A DNA stretch of 37,596 bases from a virus (Duplodnaviria > Caudoviricetes). The notes below the pieces were generated by a model. It worked only from the letters and a program-made list of their open reading frames with translations, did no database searches and was not told the DNA's origin. The position numbers were made by a program, and so were the translations under genes. The stretch's first letter is position 1. Every line of letters begins with the position of its first letter. Shown here in pieces: positions 1 to 15,149 of this stretch. The stretch is from the IMG/VR virus record IMGVR_UViG_3300037506_000023, positions 1 through 37,596 of that record; one strand, 5' to 3'.

Positions 1-87
1 GCGGGGCCTCCTTCTCGTGGGGTAGACTTACCTCAGAGAGAGGGGGGACGGTATGAGGGAGCGAATCGAGCGGTCCGAGTGGTTGAA
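1..87. repeat. Terminal direct repeat, left copy (assembly circularity overlap)
   Basis: 1-87 matches 37510-37596 except T18 vs G37527. Confidence 0.95.
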
Positions 88-325
88 CGCTCTCGCGTTG
101 GCGGTCGGCGCATTCGCGTTGCTTGGGCTGGCGCTGATGCTGTCGTCGTGTTCGTCAAAGGGCGTCGTACGTTTCCGCGTGGCGAACGAGACGCCGCACA
201 AGCTGACGTTCCGCACGAGCGCGGGTGTCTTCTCACGCTCGATCACGCTTGAGCCTGGGGTGGTATGGGACGGATGGGCGGACCCGCGCTTCGTCTCGTC
301 TCAGATCGTGGTGAGCGTGAAGTAG
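53..325 (+). CDS. Small lipoprotein, last gene of the late/lysis region across the circular junction
   Basis: Hydrophobic signal ending in lipobox LSSC; G-rich RBS upstream; beta-rich mature part. Confidence 0.7.
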   Translation: MRERIERSEWLNALALAVGAFALLGLALMLSSCSSKGVVRFRVANETPHKLTFRTSAGVFSRSITLEPGVVWDGWADPRFVSSQIVVSVK

Positions 326-530
326 CTTGCTTGTTCCAACTCCTACTCCCGCTCCAGCTCCAGCTCCAGCCCCAGCTCCAGCTCCAGCTCCAGCTTCCGC
401 TTCCGCTCCCGCTCCAGCTCCTGCTCCTGCTCCTGCTCCTGCTCCCGCTCCTGCTCCAGCTCCAGCTTCCGCTCCTGCTCCAGCTCCAGCTCATGCTCCT
501 GCTTCTGCTTCTAAGCATCGTTGCGATCAT
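243..530 (-). CDS. Ser-X (SW/SR/SG) dipeptide-repeat peptide
   Basis: ATG at 530 with GAGGA RBS; MIATMLR followed by about 29 S-X units; co-oriented with the leftward operon. Confidence 0.6.
   Translation of the reverse strand: MIATMLRSRSRSMSWSWSRSGSWSWSRSGSRSRSRSRSWSGSGSGSWSWSWSWGWSWSWSGSRSWNKQATSRSPRSETRRSAGPPIRPIPPQAQA
339..511. repeat. Degenerate hexamer tandem repeat (GCTCCA/GCTCCT/GCTCCC/GCTTCC)
   Basis: Visible directly; the minus strand reads AGC-NGR codon pairs. Confidence 0.95.
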
Positions 531-550
531 CACGTCCTCGTCTTCGTTTT

Positions 551-586
551 TGGTGGTGGCGTGGGGTCCTTCCCACGCCACCACTA
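551..586. other. Intergenic hairpin with a 13-bp perfect stem
   Basis: GTGGTGGCGTGGG (553-565) pairs with CCCACGCCACCAC (572-584); no downstream U-tract on either strand. Confidence 0.8.
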
Positions 587-597
587 CGGTAACCCGC

Positions 598-861
598 CTA
601 TTTCGCCGCTCGCGGAAGCTCGTGACGGTAAAGCGTAGAATCAACGATTGTGTCGAGTCGCACGTCCACCGGATCGGGGAACGGCTCTACCTCCGAGTAG
701 GTACCTTTCAGCAGAAACTCTCCCCATCGTCCGCTATCAGCGAGCCACGACGCATCGACGAGAGTGACCGTTGTGTCGTCGATTGCGGCCACGCGCCCGA
801 TGTAGTGCCATGTCACCGTGCGGATGACGACATGGTTGCCGATGCTAAGTACTTTGGTCAT
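598..861 (-). CDS. Small beta-rich phage protein, probable Sm-like fold
   Basis: GGAGG RBS; IGNHVVIRTVTWHYIGRVAAIDDTTVTLVDASW pattern resembles Sm/SH3-like barrels (recognition by eye). Confidence 0.7.
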   Translation of the reverse strand: MTKVLSIGNHVVIRTVTWHYIGRVAAIDDTTVTLVDASWLADSGRWGEFLLKGTYSEVEPFPDPVDVRLDTIVDSTLYRHELPRAAK

Positions 862-896
862 ACATCCTCCCTTTCTCTTACGTTTCACGGGTTTCT

Positions 897-1586
897 TTAC
901 AGCGTCACCCCGTCGTCGTCACCCACGGCGACTCGTTGTCGCGGCTCGCTCGTCTTCCAGACGCGGACGCCGGGGATACGGGCCTCGCTCTTCAGAGCGT
1001 TAACGACAGCGCGAACCTTCTTCTCGTCCACGACCTTGTATTCGCCGGGCACGACGGCGGCATCCTCGATCTCAAAGTGCCACTGATCGACGTAGTACAC
1101 GCCCTCGATGGTCGGGACGGACGACTCGACCGAGATCGGAGGTGCGATGATGGGGCGTTGCGCGAGGTTCGCCGCCGACGCGGTCTTGCCCGCCGCTTCA
1201 AGCCGGGCGATCTCCTGCTCTCGTCGAGCGAGCGCGGAGACTTCGGCTTGAACGCGAAGTTGCGCCTCCTTCTCCCGCCGCTCTCGTTCTTGGGCGGCGG
1301 TCCAATCCGCCATGGCGACCTTCGCCGCCTCGTCAAAGACCTTGAGCGGAGATTCGAGGGCCTTGCGCTGGAAGCGTGTCGTCTCAAGCGCGTCACGTTG
1401 CGCCTTGATGATCGGGTCGAACGTCTCCGCGATCTGGCCAAGCAGCTTCCGCACGCGGGCACGGGCGTTGACCACGGAGATGTAGTCTGCATTCGTCGCT
1501 ATCGTAATGTTCGTCGTCGCCGAAACGACCTCGGCGACCTCCTGACGTAAGACCTCGTGGATGCTCGGTTTCGTTTTCTTCGACAT
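897..1586 (-). CDS. Coiled-coil protein of the recombination module (Gp157/Gam-like C-terminus)
   Basis: Long helical charged region and C-terminal WHFEIED..VPGEY..VDEKKV..IPGVRV; adjacent to nuclease and SSAP; AAAGGG RBS. Confidence 0.65.
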   Translation of the reverse strand: MSKKTKPSIHEVLRQEVAEVVSATTNITIATNADYISVVNARARVRKLLGQIAETFDPIIKAQRDALETTRFQRKALESPLKVFDEAAKVAMADWTAAQERERREKEAQLRVQAEVSALARREQEIARLEAAGKTASAANLAQRPIIAPPISVESSVPTIEGVYYVDQWHFEIEDAAVVPGEYKVVDEKKVRAVVNALKSEARIPGVRVWKTSEPRQRVAVGDDDGVTL

Positions 1587-1588
1587 CG

Positions 1589-2188
1589 CTACCCTTTCGT
1601 CAATCGGTGTTTCTTGAGCCATCGCCAGAGACAGAGCGCGGAGATCCATTCGTCACGCGCCGGTTCGTGTTCGACGAGTTTCGGAAGGCCGTCGCCGCCG
1701 TCGAGATAGAGAGTCCAAAGCGCGGGATCGCCGAGCGAGGCGCAGTCGTCGGTCATGGCGTAGGCCGTGAGTTGGAGCCGATGCCACGGATACGACCGCC
1801 CCGTCTTGATGTCGAGAATCCCGGCGCGACCGTTGAGCTTGATGATCCTGTCGAGCGTCCCCGCGTACGCGAGCGACTCGGAGCGGACGATTCGCTCGAT
1901 ACCCATGATCTCGATCTTAAGCGCGTCCTTGAAGCGTCGCCACTGGTCGAGGTACGGAACGTAGCACGCATCGACCGTAAGCTCGTCGAGGTCGCGCCGG
2001 TCTTCCAGTTCGGTCGCCCTGTGAACGTCGGTTCCGAAATCTGCGCGGTCGCCCGTGAAGCGCGACACGTCGCCCATGGCTCCGACCTCGCGAAGCACAC
2101 GCGTCACGCGGGCGAATTTGCGCCCATCGGGGAGTGCGTAATCCTCCCCGACGAGCCTGATTGAAGGGTCGTCGTGGTCGCCGGACAT
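1589..2188 (-). CDS. PD-(D/E)XK family exonuclease
   Basis: GTDVH, E..V, YAGTLD, ILDIKTG and QLTAYA motifs. Confidence 0.85.
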   Translation of the reverse strand: MSGDHDDPSIRLVGEDYALPDGRKFARVTRVLREVGAMGDVSRFTGDRADFGTDVHRATELEDRRDLDELTVDACYVPYLDQWRRFKDALKIEIMGIERIVRSESLAYAGTLDRIIKLNGRAGILDIKTGRSYPWHRLQLTAYAMTDDCASLGDPALWTLYLDGGDGLPKLVEHEPARDEWISALCLWRWLKKHRLTKG

Positions 2189-2190
2189 GA

Positions 2191-3102
2191 CTACGCTTCC
2201 TCCGGCATAGCCTTGTCTTTCGGCCCCGACGAATCTTTCGCGACGTTCTCTACGTCGCCTGCGACGACGAGCGTATCGAGACGGTTCGACTGACGTTGTT
2301 CGCCGCTCTTCGTGTCGCTCCACGTCTCGACGTGATAGGTGATCGTGACGGGCAGCTCTTCGAGCTTCGCGTGCTTCGCGTCTTCGGCGGCGGTCTTCGA
2401 GTAGGTCGTCCACCGAATGTCACCCGCCTTGATCGTGTAGATCGTCTTGCCGTTAACGTTCGGCTTTTGCAGCACGTCGGAGATCGCGCCGGTCCAGGAG
2501 AGCGACTCGGGTGCGGGGTGCGCGGGAGTCGTCGCCGCCTTCGTCGCGCTCTTCGCTTGCGGCTTCTTCCGTGCGGTCGGCGATTGCGACGTCGCGACCT
2601 CGACGCCTTCGGCCTCGGCGACCATCTCCTCGGCGGGCGTCGCGTCGTACCCCGCGAGGGCGATCACGAACCCAAGCGGAAGGCGAAGGGCCTTGCTCGT
2701 TGCGCGTGTCTGAGCCATCGACCGGCGCGCGAAGTCGTCGCGTTGCGCCCAGAGCCGCTCGTCGGAGGTGCATTGTGCTTCCGCCGCGCCGACGAGGTTT
2801 CCCGCGAGCGTCCGCGCCTCGACGCGGGCCTCCCATCCGCCATCGACGCGCCGACACCAGACGAGGACAGGAAAGACGCCGAGCATGGAACCGAGCAGCG
2901 TCCAGCCCTCGACTCGGACGTGTTTCCTGCCAGAGATCGCGGTATAGAGCTTGCGCGAGTCGATCACGTCGGCAAGAGCCTTCGCTACGGCGGTCGCCTT
3001 GACCACGACGGCGGCGGGATCTTGCGTGCCGAAGAGAGTCGAGATATCGCGTGGTGTCGCGACGGGAGTTGCGACGACGATCTCGGATTGTGCGTCTGGC
3101 AT
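2191..3102 (-). CDS. Putative single-strand annealing (recombinase) protein with C-terminal beta domain
   Basis: GRKHVRVEGW, SMAQTRA.SKALR and GY.ATPAEEM motifs; adjacent to an exonuclease. Confidence 0.65.
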   Translation of the reverse strand: MPDAQSEIVVATPVATPRDISTLFGTQDPAAVVVKATAVAKALADVIDSRKLYTAISGRKHVRVEGWTLLGSMLGVFPVLVWCRRVDGGWEARVEARTLAGNLVGAAEAQCTSDERLWAQRDDFARRSMAQTRATSKALRLPLGFVIALAGYDATPAEEMVAEAEGVEVATSQSPTARKKPQAKSATKAATTPAHPAPESLSWTGAISDVLQKPNVNGKTIYTIKAGDIRWTTYSKTAAEDAKHAKLEELPVTITYHVETWSDTKSGEQRQSNRLDTLVVAGDVENVAKDSSGPKDKAMPEEA

Positions 3103-3139
3103 GGCTACCCTTTCGTGTTGGAGGAAAAGTGAGGTCGAT

Positions 3140-3167
3140 ATTCTACGAGCGACCCGCGACGGGTCAA
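3140..3167 (-). promoter_or_regulatory. Sigma70-like promoter for the recombination genes
   Basis: TTGACC-16 nt-TAGAAT on the minus strand; palindrome GACCCG-CGA-CGGGTC (3151-3165) overlaps the -35 box and spacer. Confidence 0.7.
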
Positions 3168-3424
3168 GGCTTCTTGCGAATGTCGACGATGGACATTGTG
3201 ACGTGAACGCCAAGGGCTTCGAGCCGAACCATGAGCGCGTCGAGGATCTCGTCCGACTCGCGTACGCGGATCGTGAGACGGTCGATCTCGTCGAGCGAGC
3301 GCACTTTCGCCGTGCCGACGAGCTCGACGTGGCGTTTAAGCGTCGCGACGTCGTCGCATCTCTGGATCTCGGCGACGATATCCGGGAGCGGCGTATGTTC
3401 GCTACCGCACGCGCATAAGGTCAC
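3164..3424 (-). CDS. Hypothetical protein
   Basis: GTG start with GAGGAGG RBS, overlapping the upstream stop (GTGA). Confidence 0.6.
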   Translation of the reverse strand: MTLCACGSEHTPLPDIVAEIQRCDDVATLKRHVELVGTAKVRSLDEIDRLTIRVRESDEILDALMVRLEALGVHVTMSIVDIRKKP

Positions 3425-3597
3425 TGCCGCACCTCCTCTTCGACGGTCGAGTCCGACGAGTGCTCTCCGTACTCGATTCGCGCAAGCATGGCAAGGAGAT
3501 CGGTACACGCGACTCGATATCCCTCGTGGTACGGGTCGGCTCCGCTCTGGATCGAGCGAAGCCGCTTGATTGCGCGACGTAGATCATTCGCGTTCAT
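3421..3597 (-). CDS. Hypothetical 58-aa protein (MNANDLRRAIKRL...EEEVRQ), absent from the ORF track
   Basis: GAGGAG RBS, ATG at 3597, TGA coupled to the next start. Confidence 0.65.
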   Translation of the reverse strand: MNANDLRRAIKRLRSIQSGADPYHEGYRVACTDLLAMLARIEYGEHSSDSTVEEEVRQ

Positions 3598-3790
3598 CGT
3601 GGATCTCCTCGATGCGGTCGAGCGCGTCGCCCTTGCACGCCGGACAGATCGCGGCGTCGTCGTCCACGAAGAAGACGCCGCCGTATTCGGAGAACACCTC
3701 GGCGGTCCAGGAGTGGCCGCTCTCGCAGCGGCAACGACCGATCCACACGCGGTATCGGCCGCTCTCGATGTGGCGGTCGAAGTTGGTCAC
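3584..3790 (-). CDS. Small zinc-ribbon protein
   Basis: CESGH...CPAC; GGGAG RBS; GTGA coupling. Confidence 0.65.
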   Translation of the reverse strand: MTNFDRHIESGRYRVWIGRCRCESGHSWTAEVFSEYGGVFFVDDDAAICPACKGDALDRIEEIHDERE

Positions 3791-3978
3791 GGCGACTCCC
3801 TTCGCGGCAGGGCCGCCGCGATGAGGTCTGCGAGGTGCTCCGAGCATGGCTGGCAGAGATGAACGGTTCGTGGCGTCTCCGAGATTGCCCACGGCCGCAG
3901 CGTGATCTCGATGACGTCGAGCGCACGGTCGCCACAGTCATCGCAACGACCGACGCCGGGGAGCGTGGTAACGTTCAT
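3787..3978 (-). CDS. Small zinc-finger protein
   Basis: CDDC...CQPC; GAAAGGA RBS. Confidence 0.65.
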   Translation of the reverse strand: MNVTTLPGVGRCDDCGDRALDVIEITLRPWAISETPRTVHLCQPCSEHLADLIAAALPRRESP

Positions 3979-3995
3979 GTCTGTCCTTTCTACTG

Positions 3996-4047
3996 GCGCG
4001 GAATTGCGCGTGAGCCCCCGGAGCACCGGGGGCGTGGCGCGCTATTC
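3996..4047. repeat. Intergenic hairpin repeat, copy 1
   Basis: 21-nt and 17-nt arms identical to 4346-4399, enclosing a different inner stem-loop. Confidence 0.9.
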
Positions 4048-4329
4048 GGTGGCACGAAGAACGAGATAGCCACGCGCATCGTCACGCGTGACCGCGACCG
4101 CGGCGGGCTCGAACTCACGAGCGATAGCGAGCACGTCGTCGAGCGTCTCAGGGCGCTCCCAGACGTCGGATTTTTCGCGCACGTCATCTTCTGATTCAAA
4201 TTCAAGCTCGAGGTCGCCAAACTCAGTCTTCGCCAAATGCGCGGGCGCGTACATCCACCAGCCGACCGGGTACTGCGCGCCGTACCGTATATCAGAATAC
4301 CACAGTTGGCCGACGACAATGTTGCCCAT
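4042..4329 (-). CDS. Hypothetical protein flanked by the two hairpin repeats
   Basis: AAAGGAGG RBS; ends GAA TAG inside repeat copy 1. Confidence 0.75.
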   Translation of the reverse strand: MGNIVVGQLWYSDIRYGAQYPVGWWMYAPAHLAKTEFGDLELEFESEDDVREKSDVWERPETLDDVLAIAREFEPAAVAVTRDDARGYLVLRATE

Positions 4330-4345
4330 GGCGGCCCTCCTTTGT

Positions 4346-4399
4346 GCGCGGAATTGCGCGTGAGCCGCTCCGACCGCGGAGCGGCGTGGCGCGCTATTC
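4346..4399. repeat. Intergenic hairpin repeat, copy 2
   Basis: Same arms as 3996-4047. Confidence 0.9.
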
Positions 4400-4846
4400 A
4401 GACGCCGCCTGGGCGACGCGTGTCTCCGCGTCGAGCGCCGTGACGACGCTCTGCGCGACCGCAGGGATGGCGGGCGCGAGCTCCGCGAGCAGCAAGACCG
4501 GGGCGGGGCGAAGACTCACGTCGCCAAGCCGCACCGACCCGCGCTGGCGCTGATGGTTGTGCCCGTCGTGGTACGAAAGATCCGCGTATCCAAGCGTCCA
4601 CAACCCGTCTACCACGAGGCGATTCTCTGACGCTTCGATGCGTGGCCAGCCCGGACCCTGCGAGCAGGTAGCTGTGACGCGCTCGCGAGTGATGTAGTGC
4701 TGACCAACCCTGAGCTCTCCACGCTCACGCACCAGGGGTTCGAGGATGCTGTCGAGCCTGACCGCCCACGCGTCGCGCGCGTCGTTGCGACGGACGAGTG
4801 CGCGTGCGATCATGTCGAGGACGTTGTTCGCTTCTGTCATTGCCAT
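4394..4846 (-). CDS. Hypothetical protein
   Basis: AAAGGAG RBS; ends GAA TAG inside repeat copy 2. Confidence 0.75.
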   Translation of the reverse strand: MAMTEANNVLDMIARALVRRNDARDAWAVRLDSILEPLVRERGELRVGQHYITRERVTATCSQGPGWPRIEASENRLVVDGLWTLGYADLSYHDGHNHQRQRGSVRLGDVSLRPAPVLLLAELAPAIPAVAQSVVTALDAETRVAQAASE

Positions 4847-4872
4847 GTCGTTCTCCTTTCCTGTCTACATAT

Positions 4873-4900
4873 ACTATACGTAATTGACCACGAAATGCAA
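4873..4900 (-). promoter_or_regulatory. Sigma70-like promoter
   Basis: TTGCAT-16 nt-TATAGT in an AT-rich intergenic patch. Confidence 0.65.
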
Positions 4901-4995
4901 CACGAAATCGTCCAGAAAATCGTGATGGGTCGAGTCACCCATCATGGGTGGCTATGGGTCGGCGTGGAGCGCGACGACGTCTGACGGCGGCCGGG

Positions 4996-5202
4996 TTACT
5001 CCTTTCGCTCCGCGACGGCGTCCGCAATCCCGCGCTGAATGAAGTGCGCGCACGCCGCGCCGAATCCAAGGTTGCGTTCGAGCGCGTAGAGGCGGACGTA
5101 TTCCGCGAGATCGACTCGTAAGCGGATCACGACGCGCTCGCTCATCTCGGCGTTGACCTCCACGGGCCGACCGGACTTCCTCTTGGGTGCTTCCATCGTC
5201 AT
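4996..5202 (-). CDS. Ribbon-helix-helix (Arc-like) DNA-binding protein
   Basis: KSGRP then ERVVIRLRVDLAEYVRLYALERN..FG: beta-strand-helix-helix pattern; AGGAG RBS. Confidence 0.6.
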   Translation of the reverse strand: MTMEAPKRKSGRPVEVNAEMSERVVIRLRVDLAEYVRLYALERNLGFGAACAHFIQRGIADAVAERKE

Positions 5203-5206
5203 TCTC

Positions 5207-5497
5207 CTAGCTTTGTCCCTGCGCGCCGTCGTCGCTCGCGACGATCCCGCGTGGGATGAATCCCTGTCTCCGAGCCCACGCAACCATACGCGTCTCGTAC
5301 TCGCCTCGGTCGACGAACTCCGTCTTGCCGTCGGCATTGTGGAGCGTGAACGTCTCATGCTCCGCCGCGAGAACGATGATCCAGCCGAGGCGGTTCTGTC
5401 GAAGCGACTTGACCGCCTTGTTGTCCTCGGCACGCCTCGCACGACCGATCTTTGCCGTGAGGGTCTTGATCCGCTCTTGGATCTCAGTTTTGGTCAT
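5207..5497 (-). CDS. Hypothetical basic protein
   Basis: AAGGAG RBS; tightly packed in the operon. Confidence 0.7.
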   Translation of the reverse strand: MTKTEIQERIKTLTAKIGRARRAEDNKAVKSLRQNRLGWIIVLAAEHETFTLHNADGKTEFVDRGEYETRMVAWARRQGFIPRGIVASDDGAQGQS

Positions 5498-6347
5498 GGC
5501 TATTCTCCTTCTGTATCGAAGATGACCACGGCTCGAAGGGCGGGTACTCCGTCGGCTTGCGAGACGGAAGCGCGGGCATCAACTCGTGGTCGACTTCAAG
5601 CGACGTCGGGCGCAGGATGTAGACCTTGTCGGGCTCGCAGATCCAGCGTTGCGCGTCGTCGAGAATCTCGTCGCCGTACTGAGCCGCCGTCGCGTCGATG
5701 GCGTCGCGCAGGATCTCGACCGTCGAGCCGAAGACGACGATGCCGAGTCGCGGGAGACGCAGGATCGAACACGGTCGTCCGTCGTCGCGAAGAAGGCGGA
5801 TCGAGCCGTCGCGTCGGTCGAGGACCGCGATAGCGTAGTCCGCCCCCGCGCCCTGGACGGCGCGATAGAACCCGCGCATCCCTTCCGGCGTGTCGACGCT
5901 CTTCCCCGCGTGCCGCTCGATCACGCGCAGGATCACCTCCGAGTCGCACTCGGACGCAAGCTTGACGCCCTCGCGGGATGCGAGAGCGCGATAGCCACGC
6001 ACGACGCCGTTATGGACCAGTGCGAGCGGCCCGAGCGCGCCGCTTCGCCCCGACTGGAACGGATGGTTGTTCTCGTTCTTCCCCGGCGAGCCATGGGTCG
6101 CGAGTCGACAATGGAGGATCGCGGAGCGCGCCCGCAGCGCGATGTTCCACGCCGGAGTGCGAACGAAGTGGATTGCCGGGATCGGCCCCTTGCCGACCGT
6201 CATTTTCTTCGCGCCGTAGTACCCCGCGAACCCCGTCGCGTCCGCCCCGCGTGATTGCGTCGCGACGAGAAGCTCAGTCACGAAGAGACGGAACGCCTCC
6301 ACCCTGTCGGTGGGCGGTTGACCCGCCCACCCCGCGATACCGCACAC
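5484..6347 (-). CDS. Class II (Ntn) glutamine amidotransferase domain protein
   Basis: GTG start gives M-CGIAG with N-terminal Cys nucleophile; RG.DATG, HCRLATHG, NNHPF, LVHNG and CDSE motifs; GGAGG RBS. Confidence 0.9.
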   Translation of the reverse strand: MCGIAGWAGQPPTDRVEAFRLFVTELLVATQSRGADATGFAGYYGAKKMTVGKGPIPAIHFVRTPAWNIALRARSAILHCRLATHGSPGKNENNHPFQSGRSGALGPLALVHNGVVRGYRALASREGVKLASECDSEVILRVIERHAGKSVDTPEGMRGFYRAVQGAGADYAIAVLDRRDGSIRLLRDDGRPCSILRLPRLGIVVFGSTVEILRDAIDATAAQYGDEILDDAQRWICEPDKVYILRPTSLEVDHELMPALPSRKPTEYPPFEPWSSSIQKENSHDQN

Positions 6348-6369
6348 TACGCCACCTCCACGATCTCGT

Positions 6370-6497
6370 ATCTCCTTCCTATCTACTCGTAATAGGACAC
6401 TGTATGTCCACAAAAGTCAACACGAATCGAACAATCCACTTGACGAGCGACGTAAAAAAGGTACTACGATATAGGGCGTGAAAGATAGGAAGGAGAT
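6370..6497. promoter_or_regulatory. Divergent promoter region bounded by a 15-bp inverted repeat
   Basis: ATCTCCTTCCTATCT (6370-6384) and AGATAGGAAGGAGAT (6483-6497); TTGACT (minus) and TTGACG (plus) -35-like boxes inside; -10 boxes imperfect. Confidence 0.6.
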
Positions 6498-6501
6498 CGG
6501 T

Positions 6502-7482
6502 ATGCCGGTCGGAGGCGCAACGTTCGATCATGGCCGTAGATTCGGCGTCGAGATCGAGGCGTACGGGCTGACGATGGATCGGGTTACGGAGGTCGTCGCG
6601 TCCGCAACAGCTCGAGGTTGTCAAGTCGTCGGGTACGGCGACGCGCATCGCACGATCCCCGCGTGGAAGGTCACGAGCGACGGCAGCGTACGCGGGGAGC
6701 ACACGTTCGAGCTCGTCTCGCCACCGCTTGCTGGCGCGGGGGGACTCGCGGACCTCAAGGCGGTCTTGAACGCGATCTCCCGTGCCGGAGCACGCGTCAA
6801 CCGCTCCTGCGGCCTTCACGTGCACCATGACGCGGCGGACCTCGATGTCACGCATCTCAAGGCCCTTGCAACGCTCTGGTGGCGGTTCGAGGATGTACTG
6901 CTCTACTTCGTCTCGCCGAGTCGCCGGGCGAACTCCTACGCACGCCCGGCGGTTGATCGTGGCTTCGGCTCCGCGTTCGGCCTCCCACGAACGGCGAGCG
7001 TCGCCGACGAAGTCTCGGCGTTCGCGGCGAAGATGTCGACGCGCCACCAGCGCAAGGACACGTTCGCGAACGCGGTCCAGCCGGACCGCTATTCGATGCT
7101 CAACTTCCAGGCCCTTGCGCGACACGGCACGGTCGAGTTCCGCGCCCACCAAGGCACGGTCAACTACGCGAAGGTCGAGGCGTGGATCGCGCTAACGCAG
7201 ACGCTCGTGACACGCGCCCGTCACGCTCGCGTCACGATTGCTCCGCGACTCGTCGGCGAATACGCAGCAGAGACGCGGTTTTTCTTTCGTGCGATCCACT
7301 GGGTCAATCTAACGGACCCCGTCATCATCCGAGCGAAGAATCATCTCCGAGAGCGGTTCAACGCCTTCCGGCGTGAGGGCTCGACCGCGCACGATGAGGC
7401 CGAGGTCGGCGAAGGCCCTCGCACGTCGGCGCAACTCCGCGAGGCGGAGGCGGCGCGAGCGGCGGTGAGGTCAACACTCTAA
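6502..7482 (+). CDS. Putative amidoligase (COOH-NH2 ligase, Amidoligase_2 type)
   Basis: FGVEIE, SDGS, ELVSPPL, CGLHVH, RY..LN and GTVEFR motifs; AAGGAG RBS before ATG 6502. Confidence 0.9.
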   Translation: MPVGGATFDHGRRFGVEIEAYGLTMDRVTEVVASATARGCQVVGYGDAHRTIPAWKVTSDGSVRGEHTFELVSPPLAGAGGLADLKAVLNAISRAGARVNRSCGLHVHHDAADLDVTHLKALATLWWRFEDVLLYFVSPSRRANSYARPAVDRGFGSAFGLPRTASVADEVSAFAAKMSTRHQRKDTFANAVQPDRYSMLNFQALARHGTVEFRAHQGTVNYAKVEAWIALTQTLVTRARHARVTIAPRLVGEYAAETRFFFRAIHWVNLTDPVIIRAKNHLRERFNAFRREGSTAHDEAEVGEGPRTSAQLREAEAARAAVRSTL

Positions 7483-7510
7483 TAGATAATAGAGCCTTCT
7501 TTCCTATCGA

Positions 7511-7547
7511 GGCCGCGTCGGGGTGTTCCCGGCGCGGCTTTTCTTTT
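7511..7547 (+). terminator. Intrinsic terminator
   Basis: GGCCGCGTCGGG/CCCGGCGCGGCT stem followed by a T-rich tract. Confidence 0.85.
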
Positions 7548-7574
7548 GACCCGGCGGTCGGCGAGCGTTAGGAT
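7546..7574 (+). promoter_or_regulatory. Sigma70-like promoter of the replication operon
   Basis: TTGACC-17 nt-TAGGAT. Confidence 0.75.
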
Positions 7575-7584
7575 TCGCGCTCTC

Positions 7585-7821
7585 GAATTCGTCGAGCCGC
7601 CGCTCACGCTACCCTTTCGACGAGTTAGCCTCGGCTCACGCGTCCAAAGAGAGCGGCGGTTCGACGGGTTCTTGATTTTCCCTTCGAGCGGTTGTATTGT
7701 GTCGACGCGTGATGGGGAAACAGAAATCGACTTCGTAGATCCGACGCCCGCTTCTGGTTCCGCCCGTCACGCAACCGAGCGAAGTCTTGGCGGGCGTTGG
7801 ATCTACGTGGTCGCGTTGCGT
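7585..7821 (+). ncRNA. Putative structured leader or small RNA (three long stem-loops)
   Basis: Stems 7585-7605/7651-7671, 7676-7682/7714-7720 and 7734-7752/7789-7807; non-WC pairs are G-U on the + strand; begins right after the promoter. Confidence 0.6.
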
Positions 7822-7831
7822 TGGAGGGTGG

Positions 7832-8830
7832 GTGAACTGGTATCGTGTTGACGTCGGGGCGCATGAGCACAAGAAAGTGCGTCGCGTCGCGGAAGAACTT
7901 GGTATCAAGTTGGCCGAGGCGTGGTGGATCGTGACGCGTGTGTGGGATCGAGCGGGCTTCTACGATTCGCGAAGCGGGATCGTCGATCTAACACCCGACG
8001 AGCTTCTGCGGGCGATGGCACTTCACGACGCGGGCGTTACCGGAGTGACCGCCGAGTCGCTCGTAGACGCATTACTACAGCACCGGGTTCTTGACCGAGA
8101 CTGCGACGGGAATCTCGTCGTCCACGGCTGGGCCGGACGTAACGGCGCGGCGACTCCGGCCGAGCGTGCAAGGGCGTTTCGGGAGCGGAAACGTAAGCGT
8201 AACGACGTAACGTTACGCGCAACGTTCGCGTGTAACGACAAGCGTAACGAACAGCGTAATAAGGAAAGTAACGTCTACGTACGTACGTACGAACGTACGA
8301 ACATACAAACGAACGGCTCCGCCGTCGTCGTTCCCCCAGTGGTCGAAATATCAGAAACCAACACTCAATCTACAGCGAGCGATCAAACGCGTTCGCGTCG
8401 AACGCCTCCGCGTTCGCGCTCACCGGAGGCGGTTGAAGTTGCTACGCAAACTCCTCCTCCGCTTCTCGGACTCACGCTCTACGAGCAGGACGTGAAGCTC
8501 GTTCGTCGGTGGGAGGAACTCTTCGCAGCGTGGAAGATCGCATACCCCGGCGTTGACGTCGTCGCCGAGATCCGGGAGGCGCACGCTTGGGAGGTGGCGA
8601 ACCCGACCCGCCGCAAGAAAGACCGGCCACGTTTCCTCGCGGCGTGGCTTGCGAGGGCGCAGGATCGGGCTCCGGTGTCGAACGCGGCGACGAGGGCGCG
8701 TGAACACGAGGCGCGTTTGCGACGCGAGACGGAAGCGCAGTTACGCTCCGAGGGTCGCTCGGAGGCGGAGATCATCCGGTATTTCGGCGGGGCCGTGCCC
8801 GTACCCGACGACGGCTCCCCGGCGTTTTAG
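7832..8830 (+). CDS. Phage replication initiator / replisome organiser
   Basis: GTG start with GGAGG RBS; N-terminal WYRVD..HKKV, V(H)GW..RN, AER.R.FRERKR; internal repeat region; C-terminal W..NP..RK..RFL..WL.RAQ domain. Confidence 0.75.
   Translation: MNWYRVDVGAHEHKKVRRVAEELGIKLAEAWWIVTRVWDRAGFYDSRSGIVDLTPDELLRAMALHDAGVTGVTAESLVDALLQHRVLDRDCDGNLVVHGWAGRNGAATPAERARAFRERKRKRNDVTLRATFACNDKRNEQRNKESNVYVRTYERTNIQTNGSAVVVPPVVEISETNTQSTASDQTRSRRTPPRSRSPEAVEVATQTPPPLLGLTLYEQDVKLVRRWEELFAAWKIAYPGVDVVAEIREAHAWEVANPTRRKKDRPRFLAAWLARAQDRAPVSNAATRAREHEARLRRETEAQLRSEGRSEAEIIRYFGGAVPVPDDGSPAF
8190..8316. repeat. Probable replication origin (iterons plus AT-richer tract) inside the initiator gene
   Basis: Multiple GTAACG copies, palindrome GTAACGTTAC and (TACG)n; lambda ori-in-O arrangement. 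Confidence 0.7.
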
Positions 8831-8839
8831 GAGAATTCG

Positions 8840-9544
8840 ATGCCCTCACTTGACAGCGTGAAAGACAGCCTCGGCCCGATCTTCGCGATCCTCGGGATCA
8901 CGTCGCCGACGGCGCAGGAAGAGTACGCGGCGGCGATGGCGAACGCGCTTCACTGGATGCCCGGCCAGCAGTTTCACGAGTGCGTCAAAACCCTTGCCAT
9001 CGAGATGCATGGCGGGCGTCGCCCCGTCCCCGCGCAAGTCGTGGCGATCTGGCACAAGCTCGCGGACAAGTTCGGTTGGAAGTACAAGCCACGTAAGAAG
9101 TGCTCTCGCTGCAACGACGCTCGCTTCGTCCGCGCCGCCGTCCGCGACCGCCGCTCGGGACATCTCTACGCCTCCGCGAAGCCCTGCTCGTCCTGCAACG
9201 GCTCTCTCGCCGTCGCCGCGAGTGAAGACTTCGACGGCCTCGACTGGAACGCCTACGCCGACGCTCCGCCCGTTTTCGACGGCCGCCCCGTGCAAGTGCT
9301 CTCTGTACGACTGCTCTCCGACGACGAACTCTCCCGCGAGGTCGCGGCGTTCTCGCCGAAGGGTGCGCGAGCGTCGCAAACGATCATCGCGGCGTTCCCC
9401 GATCTCGCGTCGAAGTACCCGAACGCGACGAATCTTGTTCAGGAGATCGCGTCGAGCGTGGAGACGGTCGCGTCGCCGTGCGTCGCCGAACGTGAGCCCG
9501 CAAGTACGATTTCGCTTGAAGAGTCCGAGGGTGACCCGTTATAG
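8840..9544 (+). CDS. Putative helicase loader-like protein with Zn motif
   Basis: Follows the initiator; CSRC...CSSC; P.PAQV motif. Confidence 0.5.
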   Translation: MPSLDSVKDSLGPIFAILGITSPTAQEEYAAAMANALHWMPGQQFHECVKTLAIEMHGGRRPVPAQVVAIWHKLADKFGWKYKPRKKCSRCNDARFVRAAVRDRRSGHLYASAKPCSSCNGSLAVAASEDFDGLDWNAYADAPPVFDGRPVQVLSVRLLSDDELSREVAAFSPKGARASQTIIAAFPDLASKYPNATNLVQEIASSVETVASPCVAEREPASTISLEESEGDPL

Positions 9545-9568
9545 TTCGTGCCGATTAGGGGGTAGCGA

Positions 9569-9994
9569 GTGACGCAAGACTTCATCGCGGTACACGACGG
9601 GCCGGAGTTGATCGCTTCGGGACGAATCTCCGGCGATCTTCCGCCGAAGGCGAACTCTCGCAAGATCGCGCGGCATGGTTCGCTGCTCCGCGTCATCAAG
9701 AGCCGCGAGGCTCTCGCTTGGGCGAAGCGTTTCCGCGCGCTCGCGCAAGCGACCCTGCTTAACTACCGCTTCAAGCCCGTCGAGGGCACGAAAGATAACC
9801 AGTTCGAGCTTCACGTAAGCGTAACGTACTCGTCGTGGCGTCGTGACGTCGAAATCGAACTGCTCAAGGACGTGATTCAGGACGCCGGGATCATCAACAA
9901 CGACCGCTGGATCACCCGTCTCGTCGTTGACCGGACCGTTGACCGTAGAACTCCACGAACCGAGTGGCGTCTTTTACGTCGGGGCGAGGCGTGA
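9569..9994 (+). CDS. rusA: RusA-like Holliday junction resolvase
   Basis: PPKANS, RRDVE..LLKDVIQDAGII.NDR, PRTE. Confidence 0.75.
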   Translation: MTQDFIAVHDGPELIASGRISGDLPPKANSRKIARHGSLLRVIKSREALAWAKRFRALAQATLLNYRFKPVEGTKDNQFELHVSVTYSSWRRDVEIELLKDVIQDAGIINNDRWITRLVVDRTVDRRTPRTEWRLLRRGEA

Positions 9995-10104
9995 AGACTC
10001 TTCCGAAGCCGTACTACGCCGACGAGGCCGTCGGGATCGAACTCAACGAGGCGTATTGTCGCGTCGCCGCGGGAAGGCTGGCGCAGTCGGTGTTTGCTTG
10101 GTAG
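9991..10104 (+). pseudogene. Internally deleted DNA methyltransferase remnant (37 codons)
   Basis: Reads VKTLPKPYYADEAV-GIELNEAYCRVAAGRLAQSVFAW: typical N- and C-termini of phage N4/N6 MTases with the catalytic core missing. Confidence 0.75.
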
Positions 10105-10112
10105 GGGGAGAC

Positions 10113-10700
10113 GTGGAGATTCAACCGCCCATCGTGACGTTGATTCCGGTTGCGAACCTCAAGCCGTGGCCTCAGAATCCGCGCAAGGGACACGCGGTTC
10201 AGGAGATCGCCAACAGCATCGAGGCTTTTGGGTATCTCTCGCCGATCATCGTCCAGAAGGGTACGAACCGAATCATCGCCGGGCACGGACGTCTTGAGGC
10301 GTTGAAGCTCAAGGGCGTCTCCGAAGTGCCGTGCATCGTCGCGGACATCGACGACGAGAAGGCCGACCTCTACACGCTCGCGGACAACAAGCTCACCGAG
10401 CGCGCGGAGTGGGACTACGAACTCTTGATCGAGCAGTTGCGAGCGTTGCCGCTCGATAAGGCGCTCCTCGTCGGCTTCGAGCAGAACGAACTCGACACAC
10501 TCTTGAATGTGGAGTGGGCACCCGAGAAGATCGAAGACCTTGAGGCGATGACGTGTACGCGGTCGATTGTTGTCACGGAAGAGCAGTACGGAACGATTCA
10601 ACGTGCCGTGCTCGCGATGCGTGATGCGAACAACGATCCCGAAGTGCCGGAGGGTCGCTGCGTGGAGTTGATCTGCGCCGACTATCTGGCGGGTGTGTGA
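10113..10700 (+). CDS. ParB/Srx N-terminal domain protein (DNA-modification-associated type)
   Basis: LKPWPQNPR, SIEAFGY..PIIV, IIAGHGR, LADNK. Confidence 0.85.
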   Translation: MEIQPPIVTLIPVANLKPWPQNPRKGHAVQEIANSIEAFGYLSPIIVQKGTNRIIAGHGRLEALKLKGVSEVPCIVADIDDEKADLYTLADNKLTERAEWDYELLIEQLRALPLDKALLVGFEQNELDTLLNVEWAPEKIEDLEAMTCTRSIVVTEEQYGTIQRAVLAMRDANNDPEVPEGRCVELICADYLAGV

Positions 10701-11260
10701 TGTTCGGCTCGCGTACCATCCAGAGGGGGGGAGCGACGTTGAAGACGGCGACTCGACTACCGGCGCTCTTGGTGTCGTACGTCTACCGCGAGCCGTTCCT
10801 GCGCGATCAAGCGAAGTACCGCTATCGCGATTGGGTGCTCGACTCGGGCGCGTTCTCGGCGTACGTATCGGGCGCGGTGATCGAGAACCGTGCGTTCATC
10901 GAAGAGGCGAAGCGGCTGCTTGCAACCGACAAGACGTTGACGGAAGTCTTCGCGCTCGACGTGATCGGCGATTACAAGACGAGTCTGCGGAACTGCGAGG
11001 AGGCGTGGGAGCAGGGCTTGCCCGCCATCCCGACTTATCACGCCGGAGAGCCAGAGAGTCACTTACGAGATATCGCGAAGCGGTTCCCGAAGATCGCGCT
11101 CGGCGGTGTCGTTGGGTCCAAAAACAAGCTGTCTTGGGCGAAACAGTGCTTCGCTCGCGTGTACCCGAAACGTATCCACGGCTTCGGCTCCGAGAAGGCG
11201 ATCATGGCTTTGAACCGCTCGGCGTCGGTGTCGTCATCCAGGGCGTTCACTCCTGCATGA
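10697..11260 (+). pseudogene. dpdA: DpdA-like (TGT family) 7-deazaguanine DNA transglycosylase, 3'-truncated
   Basis: LDSGAFS, LDVIGD, PTYH, IALGG and IHGFG present; the downstream S.D catalytic motif is missing and homology stops near 11212. Confidence 0.7.
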
Positions 11261-11367
11261 GCATGAGAGGTGTACGTTCGGATGGAGCGATGGTCACGTC
11301 ATCCATGCTGGGCGTACTACGTCACAACGACGCCGCCCGTGAAGAGTTTCTGAGGCTTACGCGATGA
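11212..11367 (+). pseudogene. folE: GTP cyclohydrolase I C-terminal fragment
   Basis: EPLGVGVVIQGVHSCMSMRGV...MVTSSMLG..R....AREEFL; no N-terminal part or start codon. Confidence 0.85.
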
Positions 11368-11792
11368 AGAACCCCATCGACGCCATCGAGACGAAGCTCA
11401 AGACGAACCTCGCCAACGCGAAGAAGCGCGAGGAGGACGCGAACGCTCGGATACAGACGACGAAGCCGCAGTCCGACGGATGGTTCAGCGCCCTCAAGGA
11501 AGTGGACCGCGCCCGGAGCAGCCTCATCGAAGCCGAGCACGAACTCGCGAGCTTCCAAGCGGCACGCCAACGCTTCCGAGTCGTCAACGGTGCGTCTCCG
11601 AAGAAGCACTCGATCACCGTCCCGATCTACGTCTTCTGCGTCGCTCACTCGAAGCCAGCGGAGCCGACGCCGACCATCGTCAAGCCGTTCGGTGATGGAG
11701 TCCTCGCCGTCTGCGTCCGCTGCGCCGAGATCGGTAACGCGCTCAAGGAACGACTTCAGGAGGAGATGATCTCCGGCGAGGCGAAACCGTGA
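11364..11792 (+). CDS. Hypothetical coiled-coil / Zn-binding protein
   Basis: ATGA coupling; CVAH...CVRC. Confidence 0.7.
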   Translation: MKNPIDAIETKLKTNLANAKKREEDANARIQTTKPQSDGWFSALKEVDRARSSLIEAEHELASFQAARQRFRVVNGASPKKHSITVPIYVFCVAHSKPAEPTPTIVKPFGDGVLAVCVRCAEIGNALKERLQEEMISGEAKP

Positions 11793-12046
11793 CGCTACCC
11801 CTCCTTCCGTTCGCAACCCCGATCCGCTACTTGGTCAACGAGCGGCGCGGAGACTACTTCGTTCGAGTCCAGACCACGCCGACGAACGGCGTCGCCACCT
11901 TCGTCTGGAAGGGTCGTTACGCCATCGGTCGTCCGTACGCCGAGGCTGAGTGGCGCAACGCAATGGACGCCGAGCACGCGATCTCCGAACTCGCGAAGGC
12001 GTACGCGATCAAGCTCCCGTTGCGCGACGGAACGGGGATAGGATAG
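11789..12046 (+). CDS. Hypothetical protein
   Basis: GTGA coupling, fills the operon. Confidence 0.6.
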   Translation: MTLPLLPFATPIRYLVNERRGDYFVRVQTTPTNGVATFVWKGRYAIGRPYAEAEWRNAMDAEHAISELAKAYAIKLPLRDGTGIG

Positions 12047-12055
12047 GCTTCTAGC

Positions 12056-12604
12056 GTGGCTCTGACAGAGAGACAGAGGAGATTCGCGGAGGCTTATTCT
12101 AAGCTCGCGAACGCGACCCGCGCCGCTATCGAGGCGGGCTATTCAGAGAAGGGCGCGCACGTTCAAGGGAGCTTGCTATTACGCAACCCTAAAGTGCAAG
12201 CCGCGCTCGGGGCGAAACGCATCAACCGTGGGATGCACGCCGAGAAGACGTACGAGAACATGATCGCGCTCGCGGGGATCGCGCTTGAAGAGGTTCAGAA
12301 AGCGAGAGCGTCGGGCGACTACAAGAGACTCTTCTTGGCGATTCAGAACGCGGACCGCACGCTCTCGACGCTCGGCAAGTGCGAGGGCTTGTTCGCGGCG
12401 GTCGAGGCGGCGAACATCAACGTGGCGAAGGTGGCCGTGAATATGCAGCAACTCGTTCAGGTCTTCGAGAAGCAGTATGCGCCACAACTCAACGGCGAGG
12501 CCGAGTCGGTGCCGACGCTAATGATCGAGACGACCTCCGCGCCGAAGATCGAGACGACGACGACCGTCGAAGAGAGCGGGGGCGGCGACGTGTCCGCCGC
12601 GTAA
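12056..12604 (+). CDS. terS: Terminase small subunit
   Basis: LTERQRRFAEAY...NATRAAIEAGYSEK.A...LLRNPKV. Confidence 0.9.
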   Translation: MALTERQRRFAEAYSKLANATRAAIEAGYSEKGAHVQGSLLLRNPKVQAALGAKRINRGMHAEKTYENMIALAGIALEEVQKARASGDYKRLFLAIQNADRTLSTLGKCEGLFAAVEAANINVAKVAVNMQQLVQVFEKQYAPQLNGEAESVPTLMIETTSAPKIETTTTVEESGGGDVSAA

Positions 12605-12605
12605 C

Positions 12606-15149
12606 GTGGACGCCGAACAAGAGAAGCTTTACCGCGCCGTCAAGCAGTCGCCGGAGTTCTTCTTCCGTGAGATCCTCGGGGCGACGCCGTACGCCGAACA
12701 AGTGCCGATCCTTGCCGACGTACGCGACTCCCGTCGCGTCGCGATCAAGAGCGGTCACTCGGCGGGCAAGGACTGGCTCGCCGCGAGACTCGCGCTATGG
12801 TTCCACGTCTCGCACTATCCAAGCATCGTCGTCGTGACGGGGCCCTGCTTTGATGACAAGACGGAAATTCTGACCGATGCAGGATGGAAATTATTCCGCG
12901 ACCTCAACAAGACAGAAAAGGTCGCGTCGCTTGTTGATGGTGAGATGCGGTTTGTAACGCCAAGAGATTGGATGAACTTCCCATCTCCTGGCGAAATGAT
13001 TGGTCACAAGGGGCGCGATCTTGACTTCCTTGTGAGCCCCAATCATCGGTTGTACGTTCGTAGAGAAGGATGCAACGGGCCGCGAGGCTCTTGGGGAATG
13101 CGTGAGGCGAGCGAGTGCTACGGGCAAACGCGTTTACGTTTCAGTCGCGAGGTCAAGTGGAGCGGCGTAGAGGACGCATGGAGCGAGCGGCATTACGAAC
13201 TGTTCGGGTTCTGGATGGCGGACGGATACGCTCGCGCAGGAGCGGACAGAGGCGGCCACAAGCGCTACGAGGTAACGCTAACTCAAGCGTTCTTCCCAGA
13301 ATATGCCCGTGATTTGCTGTTGACGCTTGGCGAGAAGGTGACGACGACGTCGCGTAAAAAACCGACTGGTTGCGAGCGGTGGCGCGATTCGTGGAACTAC
13401 ACCGTGCGCGGCAAGAAGTGGGCGTCCTTCTTCGTCGAGAACTTCTACCGTGGGCGCGAGAAGTTCATACCGGATTGGGTTCTAAACGCCTCGACGTCGA
13501 AACTGCGAGCGTTCATCAAAGGGTACTACGCTGGCGACGGCGACAAGAGCAAGAGCAACGGTGGAGTGCGAAGAATTCGCGTCTACGGCTCGAAAGAGTT
13601 AGCGGACCGCTTGCAGATAGCAGCGATGAAGGCCGGATACGTTGTCAACGTGCACGGCCCTAATCGTCGTAGGCGAGATACCGACTCGCTTGAATGGTCG
13701 TGCACGTTGATGGCCCGTGATGGGCACGCATTTCCGAATAGTCACGTCAACTTGTGGTATAGGCGTCGGTACACGGGTCGAATCTATTGCGTGAAGGTTG
13801 ATAGCGGCGTCATCATGGTTCGGCGTAACGGCGTTTATCATTGGAGCGGGAACACAGACAGACAGGTCCGCAAGGTCGTCTGGGGCGAGATCGCAGACGC
13901 CTACAAGAACTCGCGTGTACCTATCGGCGGAACGCTTTTGACGCACGAGCTTCAAAGCGGCGATCCGCGCCACTACATGATCGGCTACACGGCGACGAGA
14001 TCGGACGCTTTCCAGGGCTTTCACTCGGACAACGTGCTCGTCGTCGTGACGGAGGCGAGCGGCATCTCTCCCGAGATCTGGAAGGGCATCGACGCGCTCA
14101 TGACGGCGCGCGCTCACGCGAAGCTACTCGCCATCGGGAACGCGCTCTACGAACCCGGCAGCGAGTTCGCCGCCATGTTCGCGGAGAAGGCGGCGATCTA
14201 CAAGACGCACACTCTCGACTCGCGCAAGTCGCCGTACTGCTCGCCCGAGTGGATCGAGGAGATGCGGACGATCTACGGCGAAGGCTCTCCCGTATGGCTC
14301 GCGCGCGTCGAGGGCATCTTCCCGACGGACGTCGCCGATACGTTGATCCCTCTCGGCTGGATCGAACGCGCTCACTCGCGGTGGACGAACGAGGAGCCGC
14401 TTGAAGCTCCGGCGCTCGGCGTGGACGTCGCACGGTTCGGCTCCGACGAGACGGTCTTTTACGAGGCTCGCGGCCCGCGTGTACGTTGCGTCTACGTCGC
14501 GCAGGGACACGACCTCATGGACACCGCTGGGCGAGTCGCCGCGTGGATCAACGAGCAGAAGAAGACGGGAGGCGACGCCGCCGCGCGTCGCGTACGCATC
14601 GACGACACGGGACTCGGCGGAGGCGTCACGGATCGTTTGCGCGAACTTGGGCACTACGTCACGCCGATCAACTTCGGCGCGTCGGCGAGCGACTCGGAGC
14701 GATACGCGAACGCACGCTCGGAACTCTTCTTCACGTTACGCGAGAGGTTCCGTACGAACGAGATCGCGCTCGACCCCGCAGATCGTAAGCTCCTGCGTGA
14801 CGTCTCGACGATCAAGTATCGTATGACGTCGAAAGGACAGATCCAGCTTGAGTCGAAAGCCGACATGAAGAAGAGACTCGGGCACTCTCCCGACAGGGCC
14901 GACGCTCTCGCGCTCGCGTGTATCCCGCAGTCGATTGCGTCGGAGGTGTCGAGCGGTCGCGTGTCGAATTCGGGCTTGCTCGACTTCATGCGCGAACAGA
15001 CGCTTGCGCTACAGAAGAATTCCCGGCAAGATGCGTCGCGGGGTAAGATTCCCGTAGCGGGCCTTCCGGGGGCGGCGGAAATTTTGGAGAAGGGGCGCGA
15101 TGGCGAAGCGGATCGCCGGGCCGCAGAGTGGCACTCAAGATTCGGGTAA
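12606..15149 (+). CDS. terL: Terminase large subunit containing an intein
   Basis: Walker A SGHSAGKD, Walker B-like VVVTEA, GNA coupling region, nuclease GVDVARFGSD and SPDRADA. Confidence 0.95.
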   Translation: MDAEQEKLYRAVKQSPEFFFREILGATPYAEQVPILADVRDSRRVAIKSGHSAGKDWLAARLALWFHVSHYPSIVVVTGPCFDDKTEILTDAGWKLFRDLNKTEKVASLVDGEMRFVTPRDWMNFPSPGEMIGHKGRDLDFLVSPNHRLYVRREGCNGPRGSWGMREASECYGQTRLRFSREVKWSGVEDAWSERHYELFGFWMADGYARAGADRGGHKRYEVTLTQAFFPEYARDLLLTLGEKVTTTSRKKPTGCERWRDSWNYTVRGKKWASFFVENFYRGREKFIPDWVLNASTSKLRAFIKGYYAGDGDKSKSNGGVRRIRVYGSKELADRLQIAAMKAGYVVNVHGPNRRRRDTDSLEWSCTLMARDGHAFPNSHVNLWYRRRYTGRIYCVKVDSGVIMVRRNGVYHWSGNTDRQVRKVVWGEIADAYKNSRVPIGGTLLTHELQSGDPRHYMIGYTATRSDAFQGFHSDNVLVVVTEASGISPEIWKGIDALMTARAHAKLLAIGNALYEPGSEFAAMFAEKAAIYKTHTLDSRKSPYCSPEWIEEMRTIYGEGSPVWLARVEGIFPTDVADTLIPLGWIERAHSRWTNEEPLEAPALGVDVARFGSDETVFYEARGPRVRCVYVAQGHDLMDTAGRVAAWINEQKKTGGDAAARRVRIDDTGLGGGVTDRLRELGHYVTPINFGASASDSERYANARSELFFTLRERFRTNEIALDPADRKLLRDVSTIKYRMTSKGQIQLESKADMKKRLGHSPDRADALALACIPQSIASEVSSGRVSNSGLLDFMREQTLALQKNSRQDASRGKIPVAGLPGAAEILEKGRDGEADRRAAEWHSRFG
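12846..13853 (+). mobile_element. Intein with LAGLIDADG homing endonuclease (336 aa)
   Basis: Starts CFDDKTEILT; block B VSPNH; LFGFWMADG and FIKGYYAGDG; ends WSGN before Thr; removal restores VVTGP-TDRQV. Confidence 0.92.

Follow-up and report, generated by a model that had tools for sequence, protein, structure and literature searches.

The window analysed here is the whole of IMG/VR virus record IMGVR_UViG_3300037506_000023 (37,596 nt; Duplodnaviria, Caudoviricetes), a phage genome record that covers the entire virus record, with an 87-nt terminal repeat and 62.6% G+C. The phage is uncultured, and the source runs of the record are freshwater metagenome, with no RNA run listed among them. 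The second DNA run leaves both hairpins described below uncovered and so shows no variants in them. A minus-strand operon carries genes for an SSAP candidate, an exonuclease and a coiled-coil protein, and a plus-strand region carries a replication initiator (rep) gene preceded by a 349-nt gap. The N-domain of the SSAP model matches Rad52 over 118 residues with a Z of 7.8 and an rmsd of 4.8, a middling score. No integrase or CI-type family was found among the 52 ORFs (PHROGs). The genome had been described in an earlier, sequence-only reading as having no obvious CI repressor, which holds for CI-type families, but a minus-strand ORF of 66 aa (4996-5196) is ribbon-helix-helix (RHH)-like, with a score of 0.94 to a cluster with 79% RHH_1, and this sole repressor candidate found in the genome may encode an RHH regulator. 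The features on which the analysis draws are as follows.

897-1586, minus: coiled-coil gene, without a named family
1587-1599, minus: target 1, SD-to-start interval of the coiled-coil gene (helix scan rank 1)
1589-2188, minus: PD-(D/E)XK exonuclease gene
2191-3102, minus: SSAP candidate gene (model with a Rad52-like N-domain and an OB-fold C-domain)
3104-3115, minus: target 2, SD-to-start interval of the SSAP gene (helix scan rank 4)
3140-3167, minus: sigma-70-like promoter (10/12) ahead of the SSAP-exonuclease-coiled-coil operon
7483-7831: 349-nt gap between the rightward (plus-strand) amidoligase gene and rep
7509-7548, plus: intrinsic-terminator-like hairpin after the amidoligase gene
7546-7574, plus: sigma-70-like promoter P7546 (9/12), predicted start near 7581
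7581-7680, plus: predicted RNA of ~100 nt, hairpin 1
7606-7619, plus: candidate seed (7606-7613 open, 7614-7619 mostly in a weak inner helix)
7672-7700, plus: second promoter-like site (8/12), between hairpins 1 and 2
7734-7807, plus: hairpin 2 (19-bp stem with two G·U pairs, 36-nt loop), just ahead of the rep RBS
7823-7831, plus: possible weak target, rep RBS (9 bp with G·U; rank 15)
7832-8830, plus: replication initiator (rep) gene
9557-9567, plus: possible weak target, RBS of the RusA-like gene (rank 10), behind a promoter-like site at 9516-9545
9569-9994, plus: RusA-like gene (Pfam score under the cut-off)

The best three sigma-70-like sites in 1-13000 (3140-3167, 7546-7574 and 9516-9545) have a 7-nt word in common, which overall occurs no more often than by chance (6 found, 7.1 expected). 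The 3140-3167 site also bears a perfect palindrome across its -35 box.

A structured gap and a repeated word

The outer stem of hairpin 1 (7585-7605/7651-7671) comprises 21 bp, including three G·U pairs, and leads into an 8x1 internal loop and a weak inner helix; it is the longest uninterrupted stem in the genome with both strands considered. The non-Watson-Crick pairs of the two long stems are G·U on the plus strand (three in hairpin 1, two in hairpin 2), and the folding z of hairpin 1 is -5.6 on the plus strand versus -3.8 on the minus strand. Hairpin 1 is bordered upstream by the terminator-like hairpin and downstream by a U-rich tail (7672-7679) and the second promoter-like site. The promoter claimed at 7546 in the sequence-only reading is present as a 9/12 site, while the proposed coupling of the RNA to transcription of the replication operon is unsupported: since the U-rich tail and the promoter-like site at 7672 follow the stem, hairpin 1 may be a stand-alone gene of ~100 nt rather than a rep-coupled leader. 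Between hairpins 1 and 2 lies an eight-codon ORF (7712-7738, plus), whose start region could pair over 9 nt with the 3′ half of loop 1 (p 0.03-0.07 versus shuffles).

Exact copies of the word CGCTACCCTTTCG stand at 1587-1599 and 7607-7619, and a further copy at 3103-3115 differs from it at a single base (matching over the 12 nt of 3104-3115), which confirms the three positions and match lengths (13/13 and 12 nt) first reported for it. On the minus strand, the gap between copy and ATG is 0 nt at 1587 (ORF 897-1586) and 1 nt at 3104 (ORF 2191-3102). Each of these two copies spans the SD-to-start interval of its gene, and the one at 1587 also forms the end of the exonuclease gene, with its final codons and its stop. 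This is the only word of at least 11 nt common to two start regions among the 43 start regions of the phage. The third copy is antisense, non-coding and placed within the 21-bp stem structure of hairpin 1. It had been placed in an unpaired loop, which holds for 8 of the 13 bases (the MFE structure leaves 7606-7613 and 7618 open), but the other five (7614-7617 and 7619) are paired in the weak inner helix, and opening the seed costs 3.6 kcal/mol for 12 nt and 5.9 kcal/mol for 13 nt. The additional pairing of the seed with the rusA RBS (9557-9567) can be read from the sequence as described, over 11 nt with two G·U pairs.

Another repeat of RBS-like character is a perfect 15-bp inverted repeat (6370-6384/6483-6497), whose two copies lie on either side of the 98-bp region of divergent promoters that separates the glutamine amidotransferase gene from the amidoligase gene; an invertible segment or an operator pair is possible.

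Chance expectation and predicted targets

For exact matches, whose count against expectation had been suggested as a check, a further copy of this 12-mer is expected ~0.003 times per genome. When up to two mismatches are allowed, three matches are unremarkable (reached in 20/100 shuffles), and three same-strand copies are likewise found for 11 further 12-mers outside the tandem repeat. The null model consisted of 3000 simulations of the 1827 non-coding bases, in which a 12-mer common to two start regions appeared in 2/3000 runs and a 12-mer from any start region in 19% of runs. The unusual feature of the word is the position and orientation of the third copy (2/3000). Given 2/3000 on the one null and 19% on the other, the three-copy pattern is rare within one genome, yet picked post hoc out of a very large scan. 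The match is real, well placed and non-random and lies in a real structured element, all within one genome only.

A genome-wide scan for contiguous helices with hairpin 1, with opening costs charged on both sides, returned 1512 sites, among which the coiled-coil site ranks first (-12.9 kcal/mol) and the SSAP site fourth (-9.9 kcal/mol); net binding at both is modest. Start regions account for 6/15 of the top hairpin 1 hits versus 0/22 for hairpin 2, used as a control. Ranks 2 and 3 fall on non-coding strands. The rank 2 site is 11792-11809, where the plus strand has a second seed-like word at the start of ORF 11789-12046 and the minus strand a strong SD that no start codon follows; this seed-like word is probably due to chance.

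Allowing wobble, the complement of the seed core is found seven times in the genome, including five times at RBSs (5/43 genes), four of them belonging to DNA-metabolism genes and one to a late gene. The background at start regions of other phage loci is 9/820, crudely called, and the crude start caller recovered 4/25 here, the fifth wobble-complement RBS coming from the direct listing. Because RBS mirror images reaching at least five start regions are found for 4/43 in this phage, two of them being the targets themselves, extra targets beyond the coiled-coil and SSAP genes are suggestive only. The case for a wider regulon (rusA, rep) is weak, and such extra targets, of which the rusA RBS had been offered earlier, amount to no more than an RBS mirror image can give.

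Related loci and known RNA systems

In the collections searched, no close relative was found. BLAST of 7400-7900 against GenBank phages gave one 52-nt match at chance level, BLAST of the leader against related loci gave nothing convincing (best E 0.023), and searches with the SSAP, amidoligase and capsid returned only distant phages. The initiator search yielded six matches including itself, with the four close ones covering only its C-terminal quarter. The region ahead of the initiator gene was inspected in 26 of the 39 loci with this C-terminal domain in common. A layout of promoter-like site, long stem with large loop and RBS is present in L006 (stem at 4067-4122), L010 (9020-9066), L171 (2431-2536), L176 (3995-4051), L185, L187, L193 (911-987) and L196 (4458-4526) and absent in others, and hairpin 2 resembles these recurring long stems before the rep genes of distant phages. 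In such phages, a short upstream ORF precedes the large-loop stem, which is often followed by a U-tract before the RBS, and changes between L176 and L185 appear to preserve the stem.

None of 14 distant rep leaders has an exact match of at least 11 nt to an opposite-strand RBS in the available DNA of its locus, and no antisense copy was found in a long-stem loop for 75 other distinct SSAP start regions (flanks of up to 10 kb). In an IMG/VR pattern scan, the word followed by ATG was found in 33 loci, with an opposite-strand copy of the core in 0 and a same-strand copy in 2; one exact 17-nt match falls within an apparent gene end. Loops antisense to start regions over at least 10 nt were counted in 9/272 long stems (233 loci) versus 15/1347 cross-locus controls, and over 12 nt in 3/272 (our own hairpin counted) versus 2/1347. 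Being distant and incomplete, these loci leave an antisense mechanism neither confirmed nor excluded, and nothing in them hints at a widespread family linked to SSAP genes.

Among described phage RNAs, hairpin 1 can be compared with the c4 antisense RNA of phages P1 and P7, catalogued as Rfam RF01695 (PMC2864571), which according to the review consulted blocks translation by pairing around the RBS, with the pairing sequences likely held in loops (PMC12197685). Hairpin 1 would likewise be a short structured phage RNA, predicted to pair around an RBS (12-13 bp from SD to start, with 8/13 seed bases unpaired), but it is rod-like with a single seed of 12-13 nt, and it would best target recombination genes encoded on the opposite strand at a distance of 4.5-6 kb rather than an antirepressor (icd/ant) in the adjoining operon. 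The gene downstream of hairpin 1 is the replication initiator, and no antirepressor family occurs among the 52 ORFs. Rfam gave no match in the window or in ten related loci, and the c4 covariance model RF01695 gave none at E<=5 in 1-13000 and none at gathering score in the whole window. Hairpin 1 would work like P1/P7 c4, yet with no Rfam match and no antirepressor target it is not a c4 member.

The CI RNA of satellite phage P4 is described as pairing with seqA and seqC, which flank it on the same transcript, leading to termination (PMC4825925). Like CI, hairpin 1 sits at the 5′ end of an operon with a replication gene; unlike CI, it has no clear flanking partners, and its pairing within its own operon is weak, with loop 1 within shuffles. 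A different precedent is the start-associated sequences (SAS) of cluster K mycobacteriophages, in which a 13-bp word, asymmetric and reported in 11-19 copies per genome, covers the RBS of non-structural genes, with some genomes carrying one opposite-orientation copy unlinked to a gene start (PMC3203893). The word described here is also asymmetric and takes the RBS position of non-structural genes, but only two copies at starts are exact (five with a relaxed motif), its sequence is unrelated, and the 17-bp inverted repeats that flank SAS are not seen. RBS words of at least 12 nt are repeated in 10/79 SSAP loci, and strongly repeated, SAS-like RBS words were noted in L019, L033, L061, L072 and L077, with more than 10 copies in L033. 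Outside phages, the Cuckoo/CcsR sRNAs of Alphaproteobacteria display a C/U-rich anti-SD stretch in a hairpin. The anti-SD stretch of hairpin 1 also lies in a hairpin, but it has no Rfam match and its seed is single and in an internal bulge; there is no tandem anti-SD hairpin, as hairpin 2 has no start region in its best 22 genome matches. As the SD-to-start spacer is mirrored along with the SD, in contrast to Cuckoo/CcsR, the hairpin 1 seed would be specific to two genes.

Readings of the third copy

The best single explanation, to which we attach moderate confidence, is that hairpin 1 is a trans-acting anti-RBS sRNA of ~100 nt that damps the recombination operon, c4-like but unrelated. This retains the core of the sequence-only reading while leaving unsupported the fully open seed, the coupling to rep, the extra targets and the repressor-free genome. 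The RNA would be made from P7546, starting at 7581, with the terminator-like hairpin at 7509-7548 shielding the unit from transcription arriving from upstream, and it would be stable because of the 21-bp stem. The 8-nt bulge would nucleate on the target spacer and the weak 4-bp inner helix would then melt, giving a 12-13 bp duplex over the SD up to the start codon that would block 30S binding and thereby lower translation of the SSAP and coiled-coil genes. At target 1, translational coupling could blunt repression because the site covers the stop codon of the exonuclease gene. Weaker action via G·U pairs may extend to RusA, rep and one late gene. Since a similar promoter (10/12) precedes the SSAP operon, the RNA would be a delayed brake rather than a rep-coupled switch: P7546 and the SSAP operon promoter would fire together, and the stable RNA would accumulate and damp the recombination genes after a delay, as a timer. 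Alternatively, the RNA could keep the recombination genes down in a carrier state. If true, phage gene control would gain an RNA timer, in the form of a phage RNA that silences in trans the recombination operon of the phage itself. Most phage sRNAs covered by the review are cis-antisense, act on host genes or target antirepressors (PMC12197685), and a literature search, with subscription journals mostly outside its scope, found no paper on such a system.

A further-reaching version is unlikely in our view. Hairpin 1 would then be the first of a new family of single-seed anti-RBS phage RNAs that shut off their own DNA-metabolism regulon (SSAP, coiled-coil, RusA and initiator) through a private RBS dialect read by one U-rich seed via G·U wobble, with an RNA rather than a CI-type protein timing the end of the early programme.

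The strongest rival, possible though doubtful, takes the two gene copies as an ordinary shared RBS, arising as a start-associated repeat or a module-junction duplication, and the third as a duplicate, vestigial or due to chance, within a structured leader that serves some other purpose ahead of rep, for example attenuation or processing. RBS repeats are common in related loci; the word serves as a plain RBS in L190 and L192, two loci that have that gene in common, and precedes ORFs of 51-232 codons in L199, L202, L203 and L221. This genome has another orphan RBS duplicate, the perfect 15-nt repeat at 6370-6384 versus 6483-6497 flanking a divergent promoter region, long stems directly ahead of rep RBSs recur in distant phages, and the null for any start region is 0.19. 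What a duplicate leaves unexplained is why the copy should be the one word common to two start regions, and why it lies antisense and at the sole large bulge in the longest stem (2/3000).

Quite unlikely is self-control in the style of P4 CI or P1 c4, in which hairpin 1 or 2 would pair with the rep RBS in cis or trans to give a translational block or premature termination, and so RNA-based immunity, with the recombination matches secondary. The rep start region is first of 43 for both loops by raw duplex energy, and loop 2 versus rep reaches p 0.014-0.022 against shuffles, but loop 1 versus rep lies within shuffles (p 0.08-0.39), and loop 2 scores equally well with an unrelated late gene. In one transcript window, a fold pairing the seed with the rep RBS differs by no more than ~1 kcal/mol from the two-stem fold, yet it is dominant in only 3/30 end choices. 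Hairpin 1 does lie upstream of a replication gene, as CI is described to do (PMC4825925); an upstream seqA-like partner is absent among exact matches of at least 10 nt, however, and an integrase is absent among the 52 ORFs. A cis switch on the rep RBS was also considered and rejected, as it hinges on the transcript ends and loop 1 is within shuffles.

Binding of a phage protein to the word, either as a DNA operator for the RHH-like product of ORF 4996-5196 or as an RNA site for a translational repressor, is very unlikely. Three of the sites follow closely on promoter-like sequences, the genome has an RHH-like gene, and the SAS repeats of cluster K, which in some cases include one copy in opposite orientation, have been proposed as possible binding sites in the account cited (PMC3203893), but the word is non-palindromic, its orientation relative to transcription varies by site and there are only 2-3 copies. 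Scarcely credible is the alternative raised in the sequence-only reading, that the third copy is the true RBS of a translated 42-codon minus-strand ORF (7479-7607): the SD spacing before its GTG is usable and its stop codon overlaps the amidoligase stop, but its codon score is non-coding (-0.10 versus +0.03 to +0.25 for ten small probable genes), on the minus strand most of its SD and start codon is base-paired within the stem, no minus-strand promoter-like site of at least 8/12 lies upstream, and it has no PHROG family and spans a promoter and a terminator, so that it is probably not a gene. A bridge RNA or guide array was rejected, with no IS110 recombinase or like family found (52 ORFs with PHROGs, 30 with Pfam) and with loops that are unrepeated.

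Several other elements were observed in the genome. A tandem array of 6-nt units lies between converging genes (332-509), its plus strand open as an Ala-Pro repeat. The terminase large subunit gene (12606-15149) carries a LAGLIDADG domain, likely an intein, and contains a 19-bp stem with a 36-nt loop at 13641-13714. An element of ~50 nt is present in two copies (3996-4046 and 4346-4399) with conserved arms and differing central hairpins; the copies flank ORF 4042-4329 and precede RBSs on the minus strand, and processing sites or cassette borders are possible. An 11-nt word of this element is found again in the 3′ half of loop 1.
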